Source of the DNA: Candidatus Forterrea multitransposorum CG_2015-17_Forterrea_25_41
GTDB taxonomy: Archaea; Iainarchaeota; Iainarchaeia; Iainarchaeales; CSSED10-239
NCBI GenBank assembly: GCA_009392915.1
Contig: CP045477.1
Coordinates: forward strand, 608,001 to 672,000
DNA length: 64,000 nt
Direction of reading: 5' to 3'
This document shows, in pieces, positions 304 through 24,707 of the stretch. The notes beneath the pieces were generated by a model that ran no database searches, had not been told where the DNA came from, and was given only the letters and a program-made list of their open reading frames with translations. Numbering within the stretch: the stretch's first letter is position 1; every line of letters starts with the position of its first letter. Both the position numbers and the translations under genes were made by a program.

Positions 304-2331
304 ATGGTTTTTCCTTCTTTAAAAGTTACAAAAGAACTTACAGATAAGATAAGTAAACTTGAAGAAATAGAAAATACTAGAAGTGAAGATGAAGAAAAAA
401 TCATAAATCAATTTTTTAAAAAAGAAATATCTCAAAAACAATTAATTTCTCTATTAAGAGAGAAAAAAATACAATCTATTTCTAAAAAAACAGATATTAA
501 GGCAGTACATGCACTTGTAGATTATAATAAAACTTTAGCAAAGTTATCAGAAAATCTACAACTACAAAAAATACCTATTTATAGTATTGAAAATAGATCT
601 ACGTTTAAAAGAATTTTAAAAAACTTATTTACAAAGAAAACTAAAAAAATAAAACCAAAGAAAGTAGAAGTTAAAAAAGATATTGATACAAAAAAAGAAA
701 CTGAAATTAAAAAAGACACAAAAATTGAAACCAAAAAAGAAAAGAAAGATACAAATATCTTTGATAGAATATTTAAGAAAAGAGAAGCATTAGTTACAAA
801 AGTTGAAGAAAAACATGAAATCAAACCAACTTTTGAACCTCCAAAAGAACTTTTACCTGAAAACTATCAAGTCTTAATACATGGTTTTGCATATGCCTTT
901 ATTAGAGAATCAGAAAATGAAAGAATATATGTTGTTGCAGAACCAGAACTTACAGAAGAAGAAGAAAGAATTTTAAAAGAAACTAGAGAATCACTTATTA
1001 ATAAAATATCACTTGCAGATCTTACTGATGAGTCTCAAATGTATACTTTAGTTGAAAAAATATTTACAAGAAATAAAATAAAACTTGAAAAAGAACAAAA
1101 AGATAAAATTGTTTATTATATTATAAGACAAGTAAGTGGACTTGATAAAATAGAACCACTTATGCATGATCCATTAATTGAAGATATTGAGTGTGATGGT
1201 ATAGGGATACCAATCTTCATTGTTCATAGAAAATATGGACACATTGTAACAAATATTGTTCTAGATACAGAAAATGAACTACAACAATTTATTATAAAAA
1301 TGGCACACCTTTGTAAAAGTTATGTTTCATATGCATCTCCACTTTTAGATGCAATTTTACCAGATGGATCTCGTGTAAATGCAACATTAACTTCAAATGT
1401 TTCAACAAGAGGACCAACTTTTACAATCAGAAAGTTCCCTCAAAAACCATTAACAACAATTGATTTAATTAACTCTGAAACAATCACTCCAGAAATTGTA
1501 TCATATCTTTGGACATTACTTGAATTTAAAAAGAACATGATATTAATTGGACCAACAGCTGGTGGAAAAACAACACTTCTAAATGTAATTTCTTCATTTA
1601 TACCAGAAGCACAAAGAGTAGTATCAATTGAAGATACAAGAGAAATTAATCTTTTACTTAACAACTGGATTCCACAGATTACAAGAAGTGGTTTTGGACC
1701 TCCTGATCAAAATGGAAAAAGATATGGTGAAGTTAACATGAATGATCTTTTAAAAGAATCATTCAGACAAAGACCAGATTACTTAATTATCGGTGAAGTA
1801 AGAGGAGAAGAAATGGCTTTAATGTTCCAGGGTATGGCATCTGGACACTGTTCTCTATCAACAGTACACTCTAAAAGTGTAGAAGCATTAATTACAAGAA
1901 TTACAACTCCTCCAATCTCTTTAGATCCTTCACTTATAACAAGTCTTGATATTGTAATTGTAACAGGATTTACTGGTGTTGGAGAAGAAGGAAAGAGAGA
2001 AATTAAAGAAATTGATGAAATTAAAGGTTATAATAGTAAAGATAAGAAAGTAGAATATAATCCAATATATAAATCAATAGATAAATTTAAAGAAAAAAGT
2101 GCAACTTCACAAAGTGATCTTTTCCATAAAGAAACAGCTTTAGTATACAATAGTGATGTTTTAAAAGAAATATGTACAGAACATAATATTTCTAAAAAGA
2201 AAATGACAGATATAATAATGGCAAGAACTAAATTTATTGAAGCACTTACTAAAAACCCACCAAAAGATTACGTAGAATTTAATAAACTACTTAAAAATTA
2301 TAAAAGAAAAGAAGATTTTACTGAAAATTAA
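304..2331 (+). CDS. flaI: Type IV pilus/archaellum assembly ATPase (FlaI/ArlI, GspE/PilB family) with a long lysine-rich N-terminal extension
   Basis: Walker A GPTAGGKTTLLN is followed by the secretion-NTPase motifs (SIEDTREINL, LIIGEVRGEE). The first ~200 aa are low-complexity and K/E-rich. Confidence 0.8.
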   Translation: MVFPSLKVTKELTDKISKLEEIENTRSEDEEKIINQFFKKEISQKQLISLLREKKIQSISKKTDIKAVHALVDYNKTLAKLSENLQLQKIPIYSIENRSTFKRILKNLFTKKTKKIKPKKVEVKKDIDTKKETEIKKDTKIETKKEKKDTNIFDRIFKKREALVTKVEEKHEIKPTFEPPKELLPENYQVLIHGFAYAFIRESENERIYVVAEPELTEEEERILKETRESLINKISLADLTDESQMYTLVEKIFTRNKIKLEKEQKDKIVYYIIRQVSGLDKIEPLMHDPLIEDIECDGIGIPIFIVHRKYGHIVTNIVLDTENELQQFIIKMAHLCKSYVSYASPLLDAILPDGSRVNATLTSNVSTRGPTFTIRKFPQKPLTTIDLINSETITPEIVSYLWTLLEFKKNMILIGPTAGGKTTLLNVISSFIPEAQRVVSIEDTREINLLLNNWIPQITRSGFGPPDQNGKRYGEVNMNDLLKESFRQRPDYLIIGEVRGEEMALMFQGMASGHCSLSTVHSKSVEALITRITTPPISLDPSLITSLDIVIVTGFTGVGEEGKREIKEIDEIKGYNSKDKKVEYNPIYKSIDKFKEKSATSQSDLFHKETALVYNSDVLKEICTEHNISKKKMTDIIMARTKFIEALTKNPPKDYVEFNKLLKNYKRKEDFTEN

Positions 2332-3632
2332 AAAGGATCATCATAAGATAAAAGGCCGTCTTTTTGGGTTTTTTTAGTATAATTTTGTTTTTGTGGTTTT
2401 TTTTTCTTTTTTATAATTATTAAAAATATAATTAAAATTATTATTATTACAGAAATTACAATATAATAAAAAACACTATTTTGTTCAACTTCTTCTTCAA
2501 TAAAACCAGAATCAATAATTGCTTTAGATTTAGACTTTAAAATTGAAATTTTATCAATAGCTTGTGAATATTGAGCTTTTGAAACTAAATCATTATATTC
2601 ATTATATGTTCTAAAAAGAGCATCAACTTCTGATTGTTCCTTCCAATAAGGTTTGTATTCATCGTTTAAAATTGTAGTGATAGCATGCTCTAAATTGTTA
2701 TAATTTGTAAAAGAAGCATCATAACTAGTCATCAAGTCCTTTAATTTAACAGACTCCATCCTAAGTTTCAAGTTATCAATAAATATACTTACCTTTTCAT
2801 CACCTTTTAAATCTAAATATAGTTTAGAATAGAAAGAACTTGTTGAAGAAAGGCTTTCATAAACATAATTAATATTTGAATTAAGGCTTGAAGGAGGAGA
2901 AACTAAGTTTACAAGCCCAGAAATTTCATTTGCTGGAATATTATCTTCAGCTACAATTTTTGTAACCAATTGTTCTGATTCTTGAATATATTCTAAAGAA
3001 GCTTGAGATAATTTATCATAACCTTTAAAAGAAGAATCAAAAGATTTTAAAAGACTAGATGTATCTTTACAATCTGGAGAAGATAAAAATGAATTTTGAG
3101 AATTTAGAAGTGAAGTTAAACTTTCTTTTAGATCTTCAAGATAAACTATTAGATTATTTATATGATTAATTGTTATTGTTATTTGAGAATTAAGTTCAAC
3201 AGAATAATTCTTTTCTAAAAGACCATTTAATTGTGCTTTCTTTGAATTAAGAGAAGTAATTATTGAATTAATTCTGTCAATTAATTGAGAAGATAAATAA
3301 TTATTAGGATTTGAATTTTTTAAAGATTTTAAAAGATATTCAGTTTTGATTAAATTAACATTAAAAGAATCAGTTTCACTTAAATAAACTTGAGAAAGCT
3401 CATTTGAGATTGGAACAAATAAAACAGATTCTCCTAAAGAATTTACAATAGGTATTACAAAATATTCTTCATCTTCACAACTTATCTTTGGTTGTGTAAA
3501 AGTATCAATCATATCATTTTCAGAAAGATACTCTTTTGAAATATCTTGAGCTCCAAATAAAGATAAAGCAAAAAGGTTTGAAGAAAATAAAACAATCACT
3601 AAAAATATTAATAAAATCTTTTTCATAAACAT
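2328..3632 (-). CDS. Secreted, C-terminally membrane-anchored hypothetical protein
   Basis: Likely start at the internal Met (MFMKKILLIFLVIVLF...), giving a signal peptide. Long Ser/Asn/Leu-rich predicted extracellular region. C-terminal hydrophobic helix followed by KKKKK. Confidence 0.4.
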   Translation of the reverse strand: MFMKKILLIFLVIVLFSSNLFALSLFGAQDISKEYLSENDMIDTFTQPKISCEDEEYFVIPIVNSLGESVLFVPISNELSQVYLSETDSFNVNLIKTEYLLKSLKNSNPNNYLSSQLIDRINSIITSLNSKKAQLNGLLEKNYSVELNSQITITINHINNLIVYLEDLKESLTSLLNSQNSFLSSPDCKDTSSLLKSFDSSFKGYDKLSQASLEYIQESEQLVTKIVAEDNIPANEISGLVNLVSPPSSLNSNINYVYESLSSTSSFYSKLYLDLKGDEKVSIFIDNLKLRMESVKLKDLMTSYDASFTNYNNLEHAITTILNDEYKPYWKEQSEVDALFRTYNEYNDLVSKAQYSQAIDKISILKSKSKAIIDSGFIEEEVEQNSVFYYIVISVIIIILIIFLIIIKKKKKPQKQNYTKKTQKDGLLSYDDPF

Positions 3633-3651
3633 CAATTTTTTTAAACTATTA

Positions 3652-4629
3652 TTATTCATCTCTAATAGCTCCATTATTAAAAACTTTATAGAAAATAAAA
3701 ACATATAAAAGACCTATAAGAGAAAAGGCAATTGAAAAATATATCTGCGCCATTGAAGCAATTAAAATACCAATGAAAAGAGCAAAGAATTTATTTACAA
3801 CAACCATTAAAGGAATACTTGAAATTGAATCTAAAACTTGATTTTTAATATCATTAGTATTTAAATTTGCATAAAGTCTATCAAAATCTTCAGTACTTGT
3901 TTTAGCACTACTGTTTTCTTTAATATTTTCTATAAAGTCAATATAGTTATAGACTACAGGATCTTTTAATTTTTGTAACTCTTTATATTCTTCTGAATCT
4001 ATTATAAAATTTACAACTGAAGAAGTACTTGCTTTACTTATACTGTAAGAAGTACCAAGCCAATTACCAATATCATCACCTACAAAAACTTCAACCATAC
4101 CCATTTGCATTTTTTGAGAATAACTTGCTTGATTTGGTAAGATTACAAGAAAGATTACTAAAAATAAAGTTAAAGATAAAAGAATACTTATCTTTGAATT
4201 TGCATAGTTTGAAAGAGAGTTAAGATGATCTCTTTCTTTAAATTTATTATATGTTAGAATAGATAAAAGTAAATGAGAAGCTAAATAAAATAAAACAAAT
4301 AACCAAAAATTTGCAGAAAATTTAAATATTAAAAAAGAAATTATAAAACCTAAAGTTATTCCTAAAAAAACTTCTAAAAGATCTAAATTTTTTTCTTTTC
4401 TAACAGATAAAGCAATACAGATTGCAGAAGTTATTGGAAATAATAAAAGTAAAAATAAAAAATCTAATGTTAAAAAAGTATTAACAATATCAGATAAATT
4501 AAAAACAATTAAAGAAGTTAGAGAAATACCTGATGCTTTATAAAAAAACATCCACATTATTATTGAAAAAGCAATTAAAAATATTTTTAAAATACCTTTT
4601 TTTTCAAAAACTTCAGTATAACTCATCAA
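3652..4629 (-). CDS. Polytopic integral membrane protein (function unknown)
   Basis: Multiple hydrophobic helices spread over 325 aa. No recognisable catalytic motif. Confidence 0.4.
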   Translation of the reverse strand: MMSYTEVFEKKGILKIFLIAFSIIMWMFFYKASGISLTSLIVFNLSDIVNTFLTLDFLFLLLLFPITSAICIALSVRKEKNLDLLEVFLGITLGFIISFLIFKFSANFWLFVLFYLASHLLLSILTYNKFKERDHLNSLSNYANSKISILLSLTLFLVIFLVILPNQASYSQKMQMGMVEVFVGDDIGNWLGTSYSISKASTSSVVNFIIDSEEYKELQKLKDPVVYNYIDFIENIKENSSAKTSTEDFDRLYANLNTNDIKNQVLDSISSIPLMVVVNKFFALFIGILIASMAQIYFSIAFSLIGLLYVFIFYKVFNNGAIRDE

Positions 4630-16054: not shown

Positions 16055-16738
16055 TTAAACATACCCTTCAATGTATGCTGTTTTTGTTTTTATAAAAAGC
16101 TTTTTGGATAATTCAGGAAAAATTAAACCTTTTTTTAATTTACACACAAATTCAAAAAGTCCAATAGCAGGATAAGGAAGCAAATTATAATGAATATTTT
16201 CAAAAATAAATCCATTTAGAAAAACAGATAGCTCAGAAAGGTAATATTCAGATAATTTTTCTAACTCATTTAAAGTAAAAGATTTATCTGAAAAAAGATT
16301 TTTAATATAATTTAAAACATAATTTCTAAAAAGAATATTAGTATTAAATTCATCAAAAATTAAACACCTGTTTTTTTTATAATCAAAAGAATTAATTACA
16401 TCTTTCCAACGAACAATAATAATTTTTTTTTGAATATCTTGCAGATATTTTGCAATGATTTTTTCACACAATCTTTTTACTTGAGATCCTTTCTTAAAAG
16501 CAGTTTTTTTAGCAGAATCTTTTGAAAGATTAAAAAATATTTCATCATTAATAGCTTGGATTTCATCTGCAATTAAAATAGCTACTTTTTCGTTTGTATT
16601 TTCTAAAGCCCAATCTAAATATCTTTTAATATGTTCTTCAGAAAAATAATTATTTCTTACACTTATTCCAATATAAATATTAAATTTTTTATTTTTAACT
16701 TCAGTTTCATTTGTTAAAAAATAATTTTTAATAATCAT
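16055..16738 (-). CDS. Cyclodipeptide synthase (CDPS)-like protein (class-I aaRS-like fold); tentative
   Basis: IYIGISVRNNYFS resembles the CDPS catalytic-Ser pocket GIS-x-G/R-N-x-YFS. The Y-x3-E (YYLSE) with a Tyr 20 residues after the Glu matches the recalled spacing of AlbC Y178/E182/Y202. 227 aa. Confidence 0.45.
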   Translation of the reverse strand: MIIKNYFLTNETEVKNKKFNIYIGISVRNNYFSEEHIKRYLDWALENTNEKVAILIADEIQAINDEIFFNLSKDSAKKTAFKKGSQVKRLCEKIIAKYLQDIQKKIIIVRWKDVINSFDYKKNRCLIFDEFNTNILFRNYVLNYIKNLFSDKSFTLNELEKLSEYYLSELSVFLNGFIFENIHYNLLPYPAIGLFEFVCKLKKGLIFPELSKKLFIKTKTAYIEGYV

Positions 16739-19933: not shown

Positions 19934-20725
19934 TTAATCTTCAAACAATTCTGAATCTATTAAATATTCTTTCTTTTGTTTTTTAGGTTTTATTACAGAA
20001 TTTTTAATAACAAAATTTTTAATAGATTTTTCAAGAGTATCTCTAAAGATTAAAATAATAGATAATAAAATAATAAATATAATTATTAAATAATAAAAAA
20101 TATTTGAATCACTTGACCCAACAAGTACAAAACTTGGTTTTGGAGGTTTTTTTTCATAAATTAAAACTTTTATTTGGTTTGTTGAAAAACTATTCCAGTA
20201 AAGAGTATTATCAACAATCTCTGCTTTAGGGTTTGTATCTCTAAAAACTAAAGGATCGTAGACTTTTATAGATAATTTTGAATTAGAAGGAATTACATAA
20301 AGATTATTAACAATTAAACTTCTAAATAAATTTTCATTAAACTTCCAAAGAATATCATCTTCTGTTTCATAGAAATTTTCTAATATTAAATCAGATATTT
20401 CATAATTAATATTTATTTGATCTTTTGTTTCATCAAAAATAATAGAAACATTTGAAAAATCATTTAAATAAATATTAGGTTTTAATCTTGGATCAATTTC
20501 TTCAAATTTATCAAGATCTATATTTGCAGCAATTATTTGGTTTTTAAAATTAACTTTATCATTATAGATATAAGGGTTATAAGATACATCCCAAACTTCT
20601 TTAATAATTGCCTTATCTGGACTTTTAATATCAATAGTTATATTAAAATTAGTAATTTCTGCAGAATAAACAGTAGAGGCAAATAAAAAAATTAAGAAAA
20701 ATATTAATAATTGTTTATATTTCAT
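19934..20725 (-). CDS. Secreted hypothetical protein with C-terminal TM anchor
   Basis: N-terminal signal peptide and C-terminal hydrophobic helix. Confidence 0.35.
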   Translation of the reverse strand: MKYKQLLIFFLIFLFASTVYSAEITNFNITIDIKSPDKAIIKEVWDVSYNPYIYNDKVNFKNQIIAANIDLDKFEEIDPRLKPNIYLNDFSNVSIIFDETKDQININYEISDLILENFYETEDDILWKFNENLFRSLIVNNLYVIPSNSKLSIKVYDPLVFRDTNPKAEIVDNTLYWNSFSTNQIKVLIYEKKPPKPSFVLVGSSDSNIFYYLIIIFIILLSIILIFRDTLEKSIKNFVIKNSVIKPKKQKKEYLIDSELFED

Positions 20726-21891: not shown

Positions 21892-22124
21892 TTTTTATAG
21901 AACCTATTAAAAATTAAAAGTTATTACAGATTTCTTTAATCTAATAAAATTAAAATACTAAATGTAATAACTTATTTTTATATTCGATTTTTAAAACATA
22001 AAAACAAAAATGTTTTTATGGCATACCTTATATGCAATCAGGAAACATTTTACAGATGTAGTTTTTAGAATATACACTTTGCATATTTTAAAAAATAAAA
22101 ATAAATATACAAACTCTGATAAAA

Positions 22125-22146
22125 CCTTATTTCTTTAAAAATAAGG
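22125..22146 (-). other. Stem-loop abutting the 3' end of the DGR template repeat
   Basis: ccttattt-ctttaaa-aataagg gives a perfect 8-bp inverted repeat, 2 nt from the TR boundary. Confidence 0.4.
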
Positions 22147-22148
22147 AG

Positions 22149-22269
22149 AAACTACTGAACACAGCGCAGGCCGATGTTGTTGTTCCGGTTCCCAGGAGTA
22201 TTGTTCAAGTTCAAGTTCAAGACCCCTGCATTAGTTCCATTGTTCCAGTTACCACCGCGCAGGAAAGAA
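22149..22269 (-). repeat. DGR template repeat (TR)
   Basis: 121-nt GC-rich repeat, 101/121 identical to the 3' end of the target gene. On the gene strand every mismatch is an A in this copy, including repeated AAC codons. Not inside an ORF. Confidence 0.88.
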
Positions 22270-22345
22270 ACGACTCCTTTTTCTGTAAAAGCCCTATTCT
22301 TTTTATAACTAAAAAGAACAAAATAAATAATTATTAGAAAAGTTT

Positions 22346-22675
22346 TTATAAATTATGCTTTAAAAGCCCCCCAATTAATTTACCTAAATCATTTAGTTTT
22401 TTAGAAATAACTTCATATTTTTTAAAAGAAATAATTTTTAGATCAAAAGAGAGCCTCACATATATTTTTAAAAGTTCTAAATCAGTATCAATTTGATTTA
22501 AAGTATTAATTTTATGTTTTGAAAAAAGAATAGTATTAGATAATAAAGAAATAGTAGTTTTTTTCAAATCTTCTCCTAAAATATATTTGTCAGATTTAGG
22601 AAATTTTTTAATTTCAGGATAAATATAAAGTAAAAAGTTATATGTTTCTTTATATAACTTTAAATCAAATAACAT
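22346..22675 (-). CDS. avd: Avd (DGR accessory variability determinant); four-helix-bundle family
   Basis: 109 aa basic protein. KLYKETYNFLLYIYPEIKKFPKSDKYILGEDL...LNDLGKLIGGLLKH matches the Avd/23S-IVS four-helix-bundle pattern. Located between target gene and TR. Confidence 0.7.
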   Translation of the reverse strand: MLFDLKLYKETYNFLLYIYPEIKKFPKSDKYILGEDLKKTTISLLSNTILFSKHKINTLNQIDTDLELLKIYVRLSFDLKIISFKKYEVISKKLNDLGKLIGGLLKHNL

Positions 22676-22685
22676 ATTATAAACA

Positions 22686-23093
22686 CTATTTTTTATTTTC
22701 TTCTATTTTTTTTATAAGTCCATTAAAATATTTAATTTTTTCTTCAAATTGATTATAAAAAAAAAGAATTTTATCTTTAGATAAATCTTTATTAATTTCA
22801 CTTAATATAAGTAAATTTGATTGAGTTGTAGAAACACAATCTCTTGAATAAGAATAAAGTAATGATTTTTCATTAGAATGATATTTATTATATCCTTTTG
22901 ATAAAAAAGAAAGAATATTTATTAAATTTGAAATAGTTTCTTGAAAAATAAAATTATCATTTATAGATGATTTATTTTCTTCTAAAAATTTATAAGTATT
23001 AATAACTAAAGGAAAGAGTTCTTTGTAAACCCCAAAATTTAAAATTCCTCTTTCTATATTTACTAAACTCATAACAACCATATTTTTGTCCAA
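22686..23093 (-). CDS. Hypothetical protein inside the DGR cassette (possible second accessory factor)
   Basis: 135 aa ORF, co-oriented, between the target gene and avd. No recognisable motif. Confidence 0.35.
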   Translation of the reverse strand: MDKNMVVMSLVNIERGILNFGVYKELFPLVINTYKFLEENKSSINDNFIFQETISNLINILSFLSKGYNKYHSNEKSLLYSYSRDCVSTTQSNLLILSEINKDLSKDKILFFYNQFEEKIKYFNGLIKKIEENKK

Positions 23094-23267
23094 TATATAT
23101 TGTGATTTATTAAAACCACTTTAATTGAGTAGCAAATTTTTTTGTAAAAAACAAAAAAATTTGCAAAAGCAAAAAACATTTGCTTTCTCTTTTGCCAATT
23201 TATTTTTTTCTTTTTTCACTTTTATTTTTTATTTTTTTGCACAAACTCAATCTTGAAGCATTGTTTT

Positions 23268-23309
23268 TCGCGACGTTACCCGTCTTACCGTCTTGCCGTC
23301 TCACCCGTC
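23268..23309 (-). repeat. GC-rich tandem direct repeats 3' of the VR
   Basis: Four imperfect tandem copies of (a/g)(c)ccgtct(t/c) (gene strand GACGGNNA) in an otherwise AT-rich intergenic region, ~34 nt downstream of the target-gene stop. Confidence 0.4.
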
Positions 23310-23342
23310 AAAATACAATATTCTCGAAATACATTTTTTCAA

Positions 23343-23463
23343 AAACTACTGAACACAGCGCAGGCCGACGACGCTGCCCCGGCCCCCAGGAGTAAAGTTC
23401 AAGCGCAAGCCCAAGACCCCCGCATTAGTTCCACTGCCCCAGCCACCACCGCGCAGGAAAGAA
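23343..23463 (-). repeat. DGR variable repeat (VR) at the 3' end of the target gene
   Basis: 121-nt copy of the TR with 20 substitutions, all at TR-adenine positions (A to G/C/T on the gene strand). Spans the final 39 codons plus stop of ORF 23346-24707. Confidence 0.88.
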
Positions 23464-24707
23464 TATACAGTAGTAGAAGTATCTCCAAAATCACTATAAG
23501 TGTAAATTCTACCAACACCATTATCTGCTGCATTATAATTATTACTTGTAAGTAAAAATAAATCTTTATACTCTAAAGTGGTATTACCTAAATTATCAGA
23601 AGAAATGTATTGGGCTTCTCCACCACCTTTTGAATAATCAAAATAATCAAAACCAGTAGTAAAGTTACTATCATCAGCATTGTTAAAACCATCAGGTTGG
23701 TCTTTTCTTTGGATAGTGTCACTTGTCCATTGCCAAACATTACCAGCTAAGTCCCAAATTACTTCACCGTTTGTTAAAGTTAAGGTTCTTTTTGTAGTGC
23801 CAGAAAGTTCATCAAAACCTTCCATAGCACCAGAAGAAGAAGAATTACCACGTGGAAGATAACCTTCTCCAACAACTCCAGTTGACCAGTTTGAAGGTAC
23901 TTGTTCAATGTTTCTTGCAATGGTCATCCATTCGTCATTTGTTATTAAATGTCCACCTACTGCAGCACAAGCTGCAATAGCTTCGGTTTGGGAAATTCTT
24001 GCTATTGGAGAACCTTCTGGAGTTGATACTAAAGTGCCTGGAGTAGGACATAATTCATAACTATAAGTATTATAGGTTAAAGAACCAGTATTACAATCTG
24101 GATAATCAGCTACAAGGTTTCCTTTACCATCTCCATTTGCATCCATTTTCATTTCATATTTTGAAACACAAAAACCACCACGCTCATTCATGGTTCCATA
24201 TAAATGGTTTCCTGGAACTGGAACATAGCCTTCTGGACAAGAAAGAGGAGTTTTTACGGTTTGAAAAAGATCAGGTTTAGTTATCATTTGAGAATTGTCT
24301 AAATATAAAACTAAATCTAAAGAGTCACCTAAAATACCATGATCAAGAGTAGCAGATTGATTGGAAAGAATAGTGACAGGAGGTTCTAAAGGATTAATGT
24401 TTGAATTGCCTAATAAACTATAACCGGTAATGGTAATAGAAGTATAAGGAGAACCATAAGGGGGTTTATACTCTAGAAGAGAACGACCATTGATAGAAGA
24501 TTTAATATTTAAATAAAAGCCAGTTTCTGATTCTGTATAAACTTCAATACTTGAAGCTTTAGAAAAAGAATCATTGGTAAAGCCTTTACCCCAAGAAAGA
24601 ATAATACCAATAATAGCAACAGAGACAACTATTAAAAGAATGGTGGCTATCAAAGGAGAAATACCTTTTTGAAATCTAAAACGCTGAAAAATATATTTGA
24701 AAAACAT
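23346..24707 (-). CDS. DGR target protein: pilin-like surface protein with C-terminal FGE-sulfatase/C-type-lectin-fold variable domain
   Basis: N-terminus FQKG|ISPLIATILLIVVSVAIIG is an archaeal class III (prepilin) signal. C-terminal domain has the FGE hallmark AGNVWQWTSD and ends ...RGGGWGSGTNAGVLGLRLNFTPGGRGSVVGLRCVQ, which is encoded by the VR. Confidence 0.85.
   Translation of the reverse strand: MFFKYIFQRFRFQKGISPLIATILLIVVSVAIIGIILSWGKGFTNDSFSKASSIEVYTESETGFYLNIKSSINGRSLLEYKPPYGSPYTSITITGYSLLGNSNINPLEPPVTILSNQSATLDHGILGDSLDLVLYLDNSQMITKPDLFQTVKTPLSCPEGYVPVPGNHLYGTMNERGGFCVSKYEMKMDANGDGKGNLVADYPDCNTGSLTYNTYSYELCPTPGTLVSTPEGSPIARISQTEAIAACAAVGGHLITNDEWMTIARNIEQVPSNWSTGVVGEGYLPRGNSSSSGAMEGFDELSGTTKRTLTLTNGEVIWDLAGNVWQWTSDTIQRKDQPDGFNNADDSNFTTGFDYFDYSKGGGEAQYISSDNLGNTTLEYKDLFLLTSNNYNAADNGVGRIYTYSDFGDTSTTVYSFLRGGGWGSGTNAGVLGLRLNFTPGGRGSVVGLRCVQ

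Follow-up and report, generated by a model that had tools for sequence, protein, structure and literature searches.

A diversity-generating retroelement with a predicted pilin-lectin target in the chromosome of a DPANN archaeon

The cassette and its repeat pair

The stretch of DNA analyzed here, called the window, comprises 64,000 nucleotides (nt) of contig CP045477.1 from Candidatus Forterrea multitransposorum (positions 608,001 to 672,000 of the forward strand), and it contains a complete and apparently recently active diversity-generating retroelement (DGR). To our knowledge, DGRs are the only natural system for targeted protein hypermutation in prokaryotes. All parts of the cassette lie on the minus strand. 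They are, in order, a target gene that ends in the variable repeat (VR), a gene resembling that for the accessory variability determinant (Avd), an avd gene of the bAvd family, the template repeat (TR), a spacer, and the gene for the reverse transcriptase (RT). The prototype of these elements is the DGR of Bordetella phage BPP-1, which has the order mtd-avd-TR-brt. Coordinates of the features in the window are given in Table 1.

The TR and VR align without gaps over 121 nt and differ at 20 positions, and they form the top direct-repeat family of the region in a repeat search. The homology has abrupt edges at both ends, and the flanking sequences are unrelated. At all 20 mismatches the TR has an adenine (hypergeometric P=2.4e-15, with 31 adenines among the 121 positions), while the VR has G at 16 of them, T at three, and C at one. 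Substitutions are found at 20 of the 31 TR adenines (65%), and the other 11 are unchanged. The initial annotation of this DNA, made from the sequence alone, had described two 121-nt copies with 20 differences, each of them at a TR adenine, and both the alignment and the tabulation bear this out. It had also taken a low substitution count to mean that the VR is currently set; in fact the count is high. The VR is intact and in frame, and it has at least two alleles in otherwise identical haplotypes.

The pattern of codons in the TR is suited to protein diversification. Translated in the VR frame, the TR ends in RGGNWNNGTNAGVLNLNLNNTPGNRNNNIGLRCVQ and the VR in RGGGWGSGTNAGVLGLRLNFTPGGRGSVVGLRCVQ, each followed by a stop codon, exactly as had been reported. 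The mutable codons of the TR in this frame are 12 AAY codons, two ACT codons, and one ATC codon, which allow up to 8.3e15 protein variants and no stop codons. Nineteen of the 20 changes in the VR are at codon positions 1 and 2. No open reading frame (ORF) of at least 50 amino acids (aa) covers the TR, which is therefore considered non-coding, and the differences between the copies are one-directional. Ordinary paralogous repeats, both of them coding and with reciprocal differences, were the alternative raised in the initial annotation, and the pair does not have this form. A search of the window with the TR, in which adenines were treated as wildcards, found no further VR-like copy besides the known pair. 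The GC content is 48% in the TR and 62% in the VR, compared with 24.9% in the window.

The RT and Avd of the cassette are recognizable as DGR proteins. The RT matches Pfam RVT_1 (E=1.7e-23) and has IGNLTSQ at residue 188, which fits the (I/L/V)GxxxSQ motif that DGR enzymes have instead of the group II/retron counterpart, and YVDD at residue 220. For families of group II introns, retrons, and DRTs, its scores are far under the curated cutoffs. The RT matches in PADLOC were all generic, and no defense-system signature was found for the accessory or target proteins. The avd product matches Pfam bAvd (E=2.1e-21) and has a score of 90.8 bits with NCBIfam DivGenRetAVD, for which the curated cutoff is 80.

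The second accessory gene encodes a divergent member of the same superfamily. Homologues point to an ATG at 23072 as its real start, giving a protein of 128 aa. A first hhalign comparison of a shallow alignment with Avd was negative, and so was a sequence search of PDB. A deeper alignment from a representative search gave significant links, placing the protein in the Avd/23S-rRNA-IVP superfamily (PF05635/PF22296). The pI of this protein is near neutral (8.5, 7.7, and 5.5 in three orthologues), compared with 9.1-9.5 for the adjoining canonical Avd; the Avd of Bordetella is a basic pentamer that binds nucleic acid and the RT.

Table 1. Positions of the cassette features in the window and of two remote targets in a related strain
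Feature	Position	Strand	Remarks
Target (variable protein) gene, 453 aa	23346..24707	-	VR is the last 39 codons
VR	23343..23463	-	118 nt at the 3' end of the target ORF, with its TAG stop, and 3 nt past the stop
Conserved region 3' of target, about 210 nt	23130..23342	-	T-rich tracts at end; alignment of window, L006, L082, L093, and L090
GC-rich direct-repeat array, candidate cis element	23269..23309	-	34 nt downstream of VR
Second accessory gene, 135 aa from TTG	22686..23093	-	Divergent Avd / 23S-rRNA-IVP four-helix bundle
avd, 109 aa	22346..22675	-	pI 9.5; Pfam bAvd, NCBIfam DivGenRetAVD
Upstream arm UUUUACAGA of predicted TR-bracketing duplex	22282..22290	-	Pairs with 22048-22056
TR	22149..22269	-	Non-coding, 31 adenines
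Hairpin, 9-bp stem and UAAA tetraloop	22125..22146	-	From RNA fold
TR-RT spacer, 257 nt	21892..22148	-	Structured; downstream duplex arm UCUGUAAAA at 22048-22056
DGR reverse transcriptase, 343 aa	20860..21891	-	RVT_1, IGNLTSQ, YVDD
Remote target L082	6001-7608		Contig Ga0451658_000012
Remote target L093	5001-6641		Contig Ga0451658_000012

Related loci, RNA structure, and genomic context

Natural variation in the VR is concentrated at the sites of the TR adenines. The initial annotation had proposed that population reads be mapped to count diversity site by site, and public assemblies supplied population evidence of this kind. The variant set consisted of the 90%-identity cluster of the target protein together with exact-protein look-ups. 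Five distinct VRs were found at the DNA level. They vary at 26 of the 31 TR-adenine positions, with up to four bases per site, but at only two of the 90 non-adenine positions (C7T and T109C). These two are exactly the sites changed in the cognate TR of one related locus (L006), so that the VRs follow their TR. The four further natural VRs have 14-20 mismatches each at adenines, and none has a non-adenine mismatch to its cognate TR.

Closely related haplotypes differ at a mutable site. Over 13,362 nt, a single base, at 23372, separates the window from an independent ENA assembly of another sample (L086). This base is opposite the TR adenine at 22178, and the change turns the codon GTC (Val) to CTC (Leu). 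The chance of a single difference landing on one of the 31 sites is 0.0023. The two VR alleles of this near-identical population are found in 20 and 15 contigs.

Targets are also found at a distance from the retroelement. The 486-kb contig Ga0451658_000012 of a related strain has two remote targets about 45 kb apart, and the 11-13 kb retrieved around each of them contains neither Avd nor RT. The encoded proteins have 91% and only 51% identity to the window protein. Outside the VR, 36% of the nucleotides of the more divergent gene differ from those of the window gene, but its VR has no non-adenine mismatch to the L006-type TR at positions 14-121. A VR as perfect as this would arise by chance with a probability well below 1e-14, though structural constraint also acts on the region. 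More generally, the non-adenine sites of the VRs equal those of the TR though the flanking coding DNA has diverged by 5-36%, and this requires repeated recent copying. The non-adenine changes of L006, the VR of the remote paralogue, and the L086 haplotype all argue indirectly for a one-way flow of sequence from TR to VR (mutagenic retrohoming). As far as sequence comparison can tell, these are signatures of repeated one-way, adenine-mutagenic copying from the TR to VRs both in cis and in trans. Two other features were seen at L093: a 452-aa ORF with no Pfam match is directly upstream, and a 35-nt insertion with a 7-bp hairpin directly follows the VR.

A second complete DGR cassette is present at L090 (2958-7954; also L091 and L092). 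It has a target with 80% identity, the 128-aa ORF, bAvd, a TR, and an RT, and the data suggest that it is in the same genome as the window cassette. Its TR has eight non-adenine differences from the window TR, and its VR has one non-adenine mismatch. The cassette adjoins a DDE transposase of the insertion sequence (IS) type, an AAA_14/DUF4143 ATPase, and HicAB. In contrast to these complete cassettes, two loci from Candidatus Iainarchaeum metagenome-assembled genomes (MAGs) are reduced (L002, 4283-6965; L003, 4369-7011). In both, the TR-side spacer and RT directly follow a VR-like repeat, neither a separate TR nor any Avd-family gene is present, and the RT of L003 is in fragments. Judged by their arrangement, these dead elements are what would be left by homologous recombination between VR and TR. 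L003 also has a duplicated 6.35-kb segment with a helicase and a target.

The RNA predicted for the TR and spacer has the structural elements of known DGR RNAs. It folds better than shuffled sequence (z=-3.4). The hairpin that begins 3 nt past the TR is kept at the same place in L090, where the stem is longer, and in L005, where the sequence is different. In addition, UUUUACAGA, a segment of 9 nt starting 12 nt upstream of the TR, pairs with UCUGUAAAA in the spacer. In L005 the homologous arms are UAUACUAAAU and AUUUGGUAUA; both have changed, and the pairing is fully compensated. RNAalifold on six loci predicted 57 pairs, eight of them with compensatory changes. This covariation comes from six sequences, four of them close, and is supportive rather than decisive. 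In a survey of 278 Avd-containing DGRs, 207 had both an Avd-binding stem-loop and a duplex bracketing the TR, and the stem-loop is right after the TR and typically has 9 bp and a tetraloop (Handa et al., bioRxiv 10.1101/2023.10.23.563531). By analogy, the window hairpin is likely to be the equivalent of the Avd-binding stem-loop, and the bracketing duplex corresponds to the 'cPRT Stop' duplex of that work. Since both elements match, the ribonucleoprotein architecture of the Bordetella system probably applies here. In an Rfam search of the window, three tRNAs were the only matches, and the spacer matched no described RNA family.

On the target side, a direct-repeat array is highly conserved. 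It consists of four repeats of GACGGnnA, with the sequence GACGGGTGA-GACGGCAA-GACGGTAA-GACGGGTAA-CGTCGCG. It occurs once in the window, where none is expected by chance, and the GC content of the genome around it is 25%. It is also found once after every VR in 16 related loci, including both remote targets and the sister cassette. It does not form a stable hairpin (z about -0.8). Conservation beside a paralogue with 36% diverged coding DNA suggests that the array is functional, and it is a candidate target-recognition or protein-binding site. The region of about 210 nt 3' of the target accompanies the target gene even at loci without Avd and RT.

The surroundings of the cassette are those of an archaeal chromosome. 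The flanking genes include archaeal core genes for PheRS alpha and beta (archaeal type), LonB, PCNA, RFC, ABCE1, and family B DNA polymerase. A 663-kb JGI contig (Ga0100381_1000002) has one difference from the window in the 21 kb compared, at position 24686. In the public assembly collection, 92 blocks contain the exact RT protein. Among species-representative genomes, Candidatus Iainarchaeum MAGs have the nearest RTs, with identities of 76-82% and of 100% over a fragment, and unclassified archaea come next. RTs with about 35-45% identity are more distant and are from Woesearchaeota, Nanoarchaeota, CPR (candidate phyla radiation) organisms, and Firmicutes. The archaeal core flanks and the relatives of the RT identify the element as a chromosomal DGR of a DPANN archaeon from the neighborhood of Iainarchaeota and Candidatus Iainarchaeum, not a phage element.

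Two neighboring genes deserve mention. Just downstream of the RT is a 263-aa ORF (19934-20725, minus strand) with an N-terminal signal-like helix and a C-terminal transmembrane segment. It has no match in Pfam, NCBIfam, or PADLOC. It is probably not part of the DGR, since the sister cassette has another neighbor at the same position. Between the genes for a class I aminoacyl-tRNA synthetase and PheRS beta there is a homologue of cyclodipeptide synthase (CDPS, PF16715, E=1e-10; 16055-16738, minus strand), which is unusual for a reduced DPANN genome.

A predicted pilin-lectin target

The domain composition of the target suggests that it is a pilin fused to a lectin. On the basis of sequence and a structural model, it is best read as an archaeal type IV pilin with an appended domain of the formylglycine-generating enzyme (FGE) type of C-type lectin (CLec), with the VR as its last strands. 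The N-terminus MFFKYIFQRFRFQKG/ISPLIATILLIVVSVAIIGIIL (...RFQKG/ISPLIATILLIVVSVAIIGIIL) has the archaeal class III prepilin signal pattern of a short, charged start, K/R and G/A at -2/-1, and a hydrophobic helix of at least about 20 residues. Residues 1-49 correspond to a class III (type IV prepilin-like) signal and hydrophobic helix, residues 66-148 to a pilin beta-domain, and residues 157-453 to the FGE-type CLec domain that ends in the VR. In the AlphaFold model (pLDDT 89.2), residues 18-49 form a helix and residues 66-148 a beta-domain, followed by a large C-terminal domain. The beta-sandwich domain that follows the helix in solved archaeal pilins is predicted to be present. The target has an FGE-sulfatase match in Pfam and NCBIfam, and its best structural match is the Thermus DGR variable protein. 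The VR is in the ligand-binding part of the predicted CLec-type fold, and the TR is not itself an expressed copy.

Relatives of the target have the same two modules. The family has 730 matches at E<=1e-5, and several members have been named 'flagellin-like protein' by JGI. Among 65 full-length relatives, Pfam Pilin_N is found in 15 and FGE-sulfatase in 49. The first 50 positions of the family profile match the type IV pilin of Pyrobaculum calidifontis (8fk7, E=2.7e-6), and the C-terminal half matches the Thermus DGR variable protein (5vf4, E=1e-3). Proteins of this type are already public, but they are annotated as 'SUMF1/EgtB/PvdO family nonheme iron enzyme' or as hypothetical. The same genome has paralogues that no longer match the TR, such as P0061, suggesting that the pilin-lectin family is older than any single DGR association. 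The pilin fusion is not general in archaeal DGRs related to the window RT, as a regular-expression scan of 80 RT-related GTDB loci found targets with pilin motifs in only the four closest relatives. Overall, we somewhat favor the view that the target is a pilus adhesin.

Several other observations concern pilin-like proteins. The window encodes a 675-aa secretion or pilus ATPase of the T2SSE family (PilB/FlaI-like) at 304-2331 on the plus strand. Beside it are two minus-strand ORFs (2328-3704 and 3652-4629) without Pfam matches. The ATPase and the two adjoining ORFs could be the machinery that assembles pilin-like proteins such as the DGR target into pili. Of the prepilin peptidase (PibD/EppA/FlaK) and the PilB/PilC-type machine that process and assemble pilins, only this ATPase was seen in the window. 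A bacterial protein of 662 aa from a Logan assembly (P0137) combines an N-terminal prepilin N_methyl module with two FGE/CLec domains in tandem after it, which are related to the archaeal target, indicating that the pilin-lectin architecture occurs on both sides of the CPR/DPANN divide. The single difference between the window and the JGI contig is in codon 8 of the target, which is CAG (Gln) in the window and TAG (stop) in the JGI contig. With this stop, the signal peptide loses its charged part along with the predicted cleavage site, and the TTG of Leu19 is called as the start of the gene. The difference may reflect a natural knock-down variant or an error of assembly.

Activity, alternatives, and relation to known systems

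The cassette is interpreted as a complete and recently active DGR, with a probability of about 0.93. Every testable defining feature of a DGR is present except the IMH* (IMH, initiation of mutagenic homing) and hairpin elements that are specific to BPP-1. The initial annotation had read the TR and VR as a mutagenic retrohoming pair, and the RT motifs, the bAvd protein, the non-coding TR, the CLec target, and the variation of strains and paralogues at TR adenines agree with it. Modeled on the Bordetella phage paradigm, an RNA comprising the upstream flank, the TR, and the spacer would fold around a complex of RT and Avd, as supported by the predicted duplex of the sequences flanking the TR, the 9-bp tetraloop hairpin right after it, and additional helices in the spacer. 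The RT would copy the TR to cDNA with misincorporation opposite template adenines, and the cDNA would replace the VR at the 3' end of the target gene. Changes would be limited to the 12 AAY codons and a few other codons that contain A, giving up to about 8e15 protein variants without stops. With a type IV pilin predicted as the target and the VR in its C-terminal lectin domain, diversification would alter the ligand-binding face of a pilus-borne or membrane-anchored adhesin. In an ultra-small and probably host-dependent archaeon, this would most plausibly tune attachment to partner cells or surfaces. The sequences show the A-specific repeat pattern, the gene content and motifs, the strain variation at A sites with the other sites tracking the TR, the homing-type identity of remote paralogues, the predicted folds, and the RNA covariation, while cDNA synthesis, homing, pilus display, the ligand, and the roles of the second Avd-like protein and the GACGG array are inferred.

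Some observations weigh against this interpretation. The TR and VR agree in all of their last 26 nt, and there is thus no IMH/IMH* difference. The DNA after the VR folds no better than shuffled sequence and has no stable hairpin, and a BPP-1-like hairpin or cruciform 3' of the VR was rejected on this ground. The cis determinants of directionality may therefore differ from those of the model system. However, IMH/IMH* and the GC-rich hairpin are not universal among DGRs, so that their absence does not exclude membership. Activity was deduced from assembled consensus sequences, and a near-identical population represented by about 35 contigs has only two VR alleles, suggesting that the present rate of diversification may be low. 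Related species carry decayed versions of the element. As to the target, the window protein's own matches to pilin signals are below curated cutoffs (UpsA, E=5e-5; arch_flag_Nterm TIGR02537, E=0.0096), and one assembly (L001) has the stop at codon 8. Finally, the A>G skew of the window VR is not explained by simple unbiased mutagenesis.

This skew bears on an explanation without reverse transcription, namely that the pair is an ordinary duplicated gene fragment or that it reflects adenine deamination (A>I>G). The window allele is glycine-rich, with five AAC>GGC codons for Gly, and 16 of its 20 changes are A>G, as deamination would give. However, A>T and A>C changes are also present in it, and three other natural VRs together have balanced spectra, with A>G in 18 of 47 changes (binomial P=1.7e-4 for the window VR compared with these). 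The A>G excess is thus a trait of this VR allele, due to selection or chance, and not of the mutagenesis. Against a duplicated fragment, one copy is non-coding and located between avd and the RT, and the differences are one-directional. The A-only pattern, the mixed spectra, and the non-coding TR effectively refute both versions.

The decayed relatives raise another explanation, that the window cassette is a fossil, now inactive, and that the VR differences between strains are old inherited states. The clear decay of L002 and L003 and the small number of VR alleles are in line with this. In the window, however, the parts are intact: the RT is full length with its catalytic motifs, both accessory ORFs are present, the TR has 31 adenines, and the RNA helices are conserved. 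The sole difference between the two 13.4-kb haplotypes is at a mutable VR site, and the VR matches the TR at non-adenine sites despite the divergence of the flanks. A fossil element is therefore unlikely.

Many DGRs are phage-borne, and the cassette could belong to an integrated virus or mobile element and diversify a viral receptor-binding protein. The position of the sister cassette beside an IS transposase and HicAB would fit such an origin, and so would the local departure in GC content, which is 62% in the VR in a genome of 25%. But only the repeats themselves have the high GC. On either side, within a contig of 660-840 kb, are core archaeal genes, and capsid, terminase, and tail genes are absent from the 21 kb that surround the element. 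A class III signal and a pilin fold characterize the target, and the chromosome contains non-DGR paralogues and remote targets; remote targets are expected to be absent from phage DGRs (Wu et al. 2018). A viral origin is very unlikely on this evidence, more so than a fossil, and a complete chromosomal DGR is preferred.

The window element resembles known DGRs in many respects but differs in its target and target-side elements. Unlike the phage-borne BPP-1 element, it is cellular and archaeal. Its target is a pilin-type protein instead of a tail-fibre tip, it has an extra gene of the Avd superfamily and no IMH/IMH* mismatch, and the VR is followed by the GACGG array and not by a GC-rich hairpin or cruciform. 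Paul and colleagues are said to have described DGRs in DPANN archaea in 2017. Such DGRs were already described by Paul et al. 2015 (PMC4372165), and the CLec fold of their targets became known with the AvpA study of Handa et al. 2016 (PMC5006420). The window element shares with DPANN and CPR systems, which include clade 5 of Roux et al. 2021 (PMC8144416), an ultra-small groundwater archaeal host, a chromosomal location, and a CLec-type target, and interaction with partner cells has been presumed for those systems. Nanoarchaeal targets of the AvpA type have an internal VR, a non-FGE subtype of CLec, and a hairpin with a trinucleotide loop inside the gene (PMC5006420). In the window, by contrast, the VR is C-terminal, the domain is of the FGE type, and no hairpin was found.

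The N-terminal module sets the target apart from those described previously. Archaeal targets typically have no recognizable transmembrane or other domain (Roux et al. 2021, PMC8144416), while the window target has a recognizable archaeal type IV pilin module at its N-terminus. No paper linking a DGR to an archaeal pilin with a class III signal was found, within an incomplete coverage of the literature. The Thermus aquaticus TaqVP (5vf4) and Treponema denticola TvpA (2y3c) DGR variable proteins come from bacterial hosts, and the N-terminal module is a lipoprotein in TvpA but a pilin helix and beta-domain in the window target. With archaeal type IV pilins (Pilin_N/DUF1628; 8fk7, and Aap and Ups of Sulfolobus) the target has in common the ...KG/ISPLIATILL... 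motif, the long hydrophobic helix, and the beta-sandwich. However, known archaeal pilins have about 130-250 aa and no CLec domain, while the target adds a hypervariable lectin domain of about 300 aa. This addition would make it a pilin of the minor or tip kind, or a pseudopilin anchored in the membrane, and not the major filament subunit.

DGRs are abundant in DPANN and CPR organisms, and the roles of their targets are largely unexplained. The features of this element that go beyond a routine DGR are the pilin-lectin target, the conserved second Avd-family gene, the direct-repeat array in place of a hairpin, and the clear natural evidence of recent activity, of targets in trans, and of decay. 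A tentative view, for which we see somewhat less than even odds, is that a lineage related to Iainarchaeota hypermutates pilin-like lectin tips, in cis and at remote loci, with two Avd-superfamily proteins, a canonical basic one and a divergent near-neutral one, and with the GACGG array instead of a hairpin as the recognition element on the target side. The second Avd-family gene and the array are leads on target recognition in archaeal DGRs. Public assemblies hold a natural series of active cassettes, trans targets, and remnants collapsed by recombination, which could serve for work on the maintenance and loss of DGRs. The pilin-lectin target points to diversified cell-surface attachment. If this is true, the attachment of an episymbiotic archaeon to its partners or to surfaces would be under programmed diversification, and the question of what archaeal DGR targets do would have a concrete and testable answer, a pilus adhesin.

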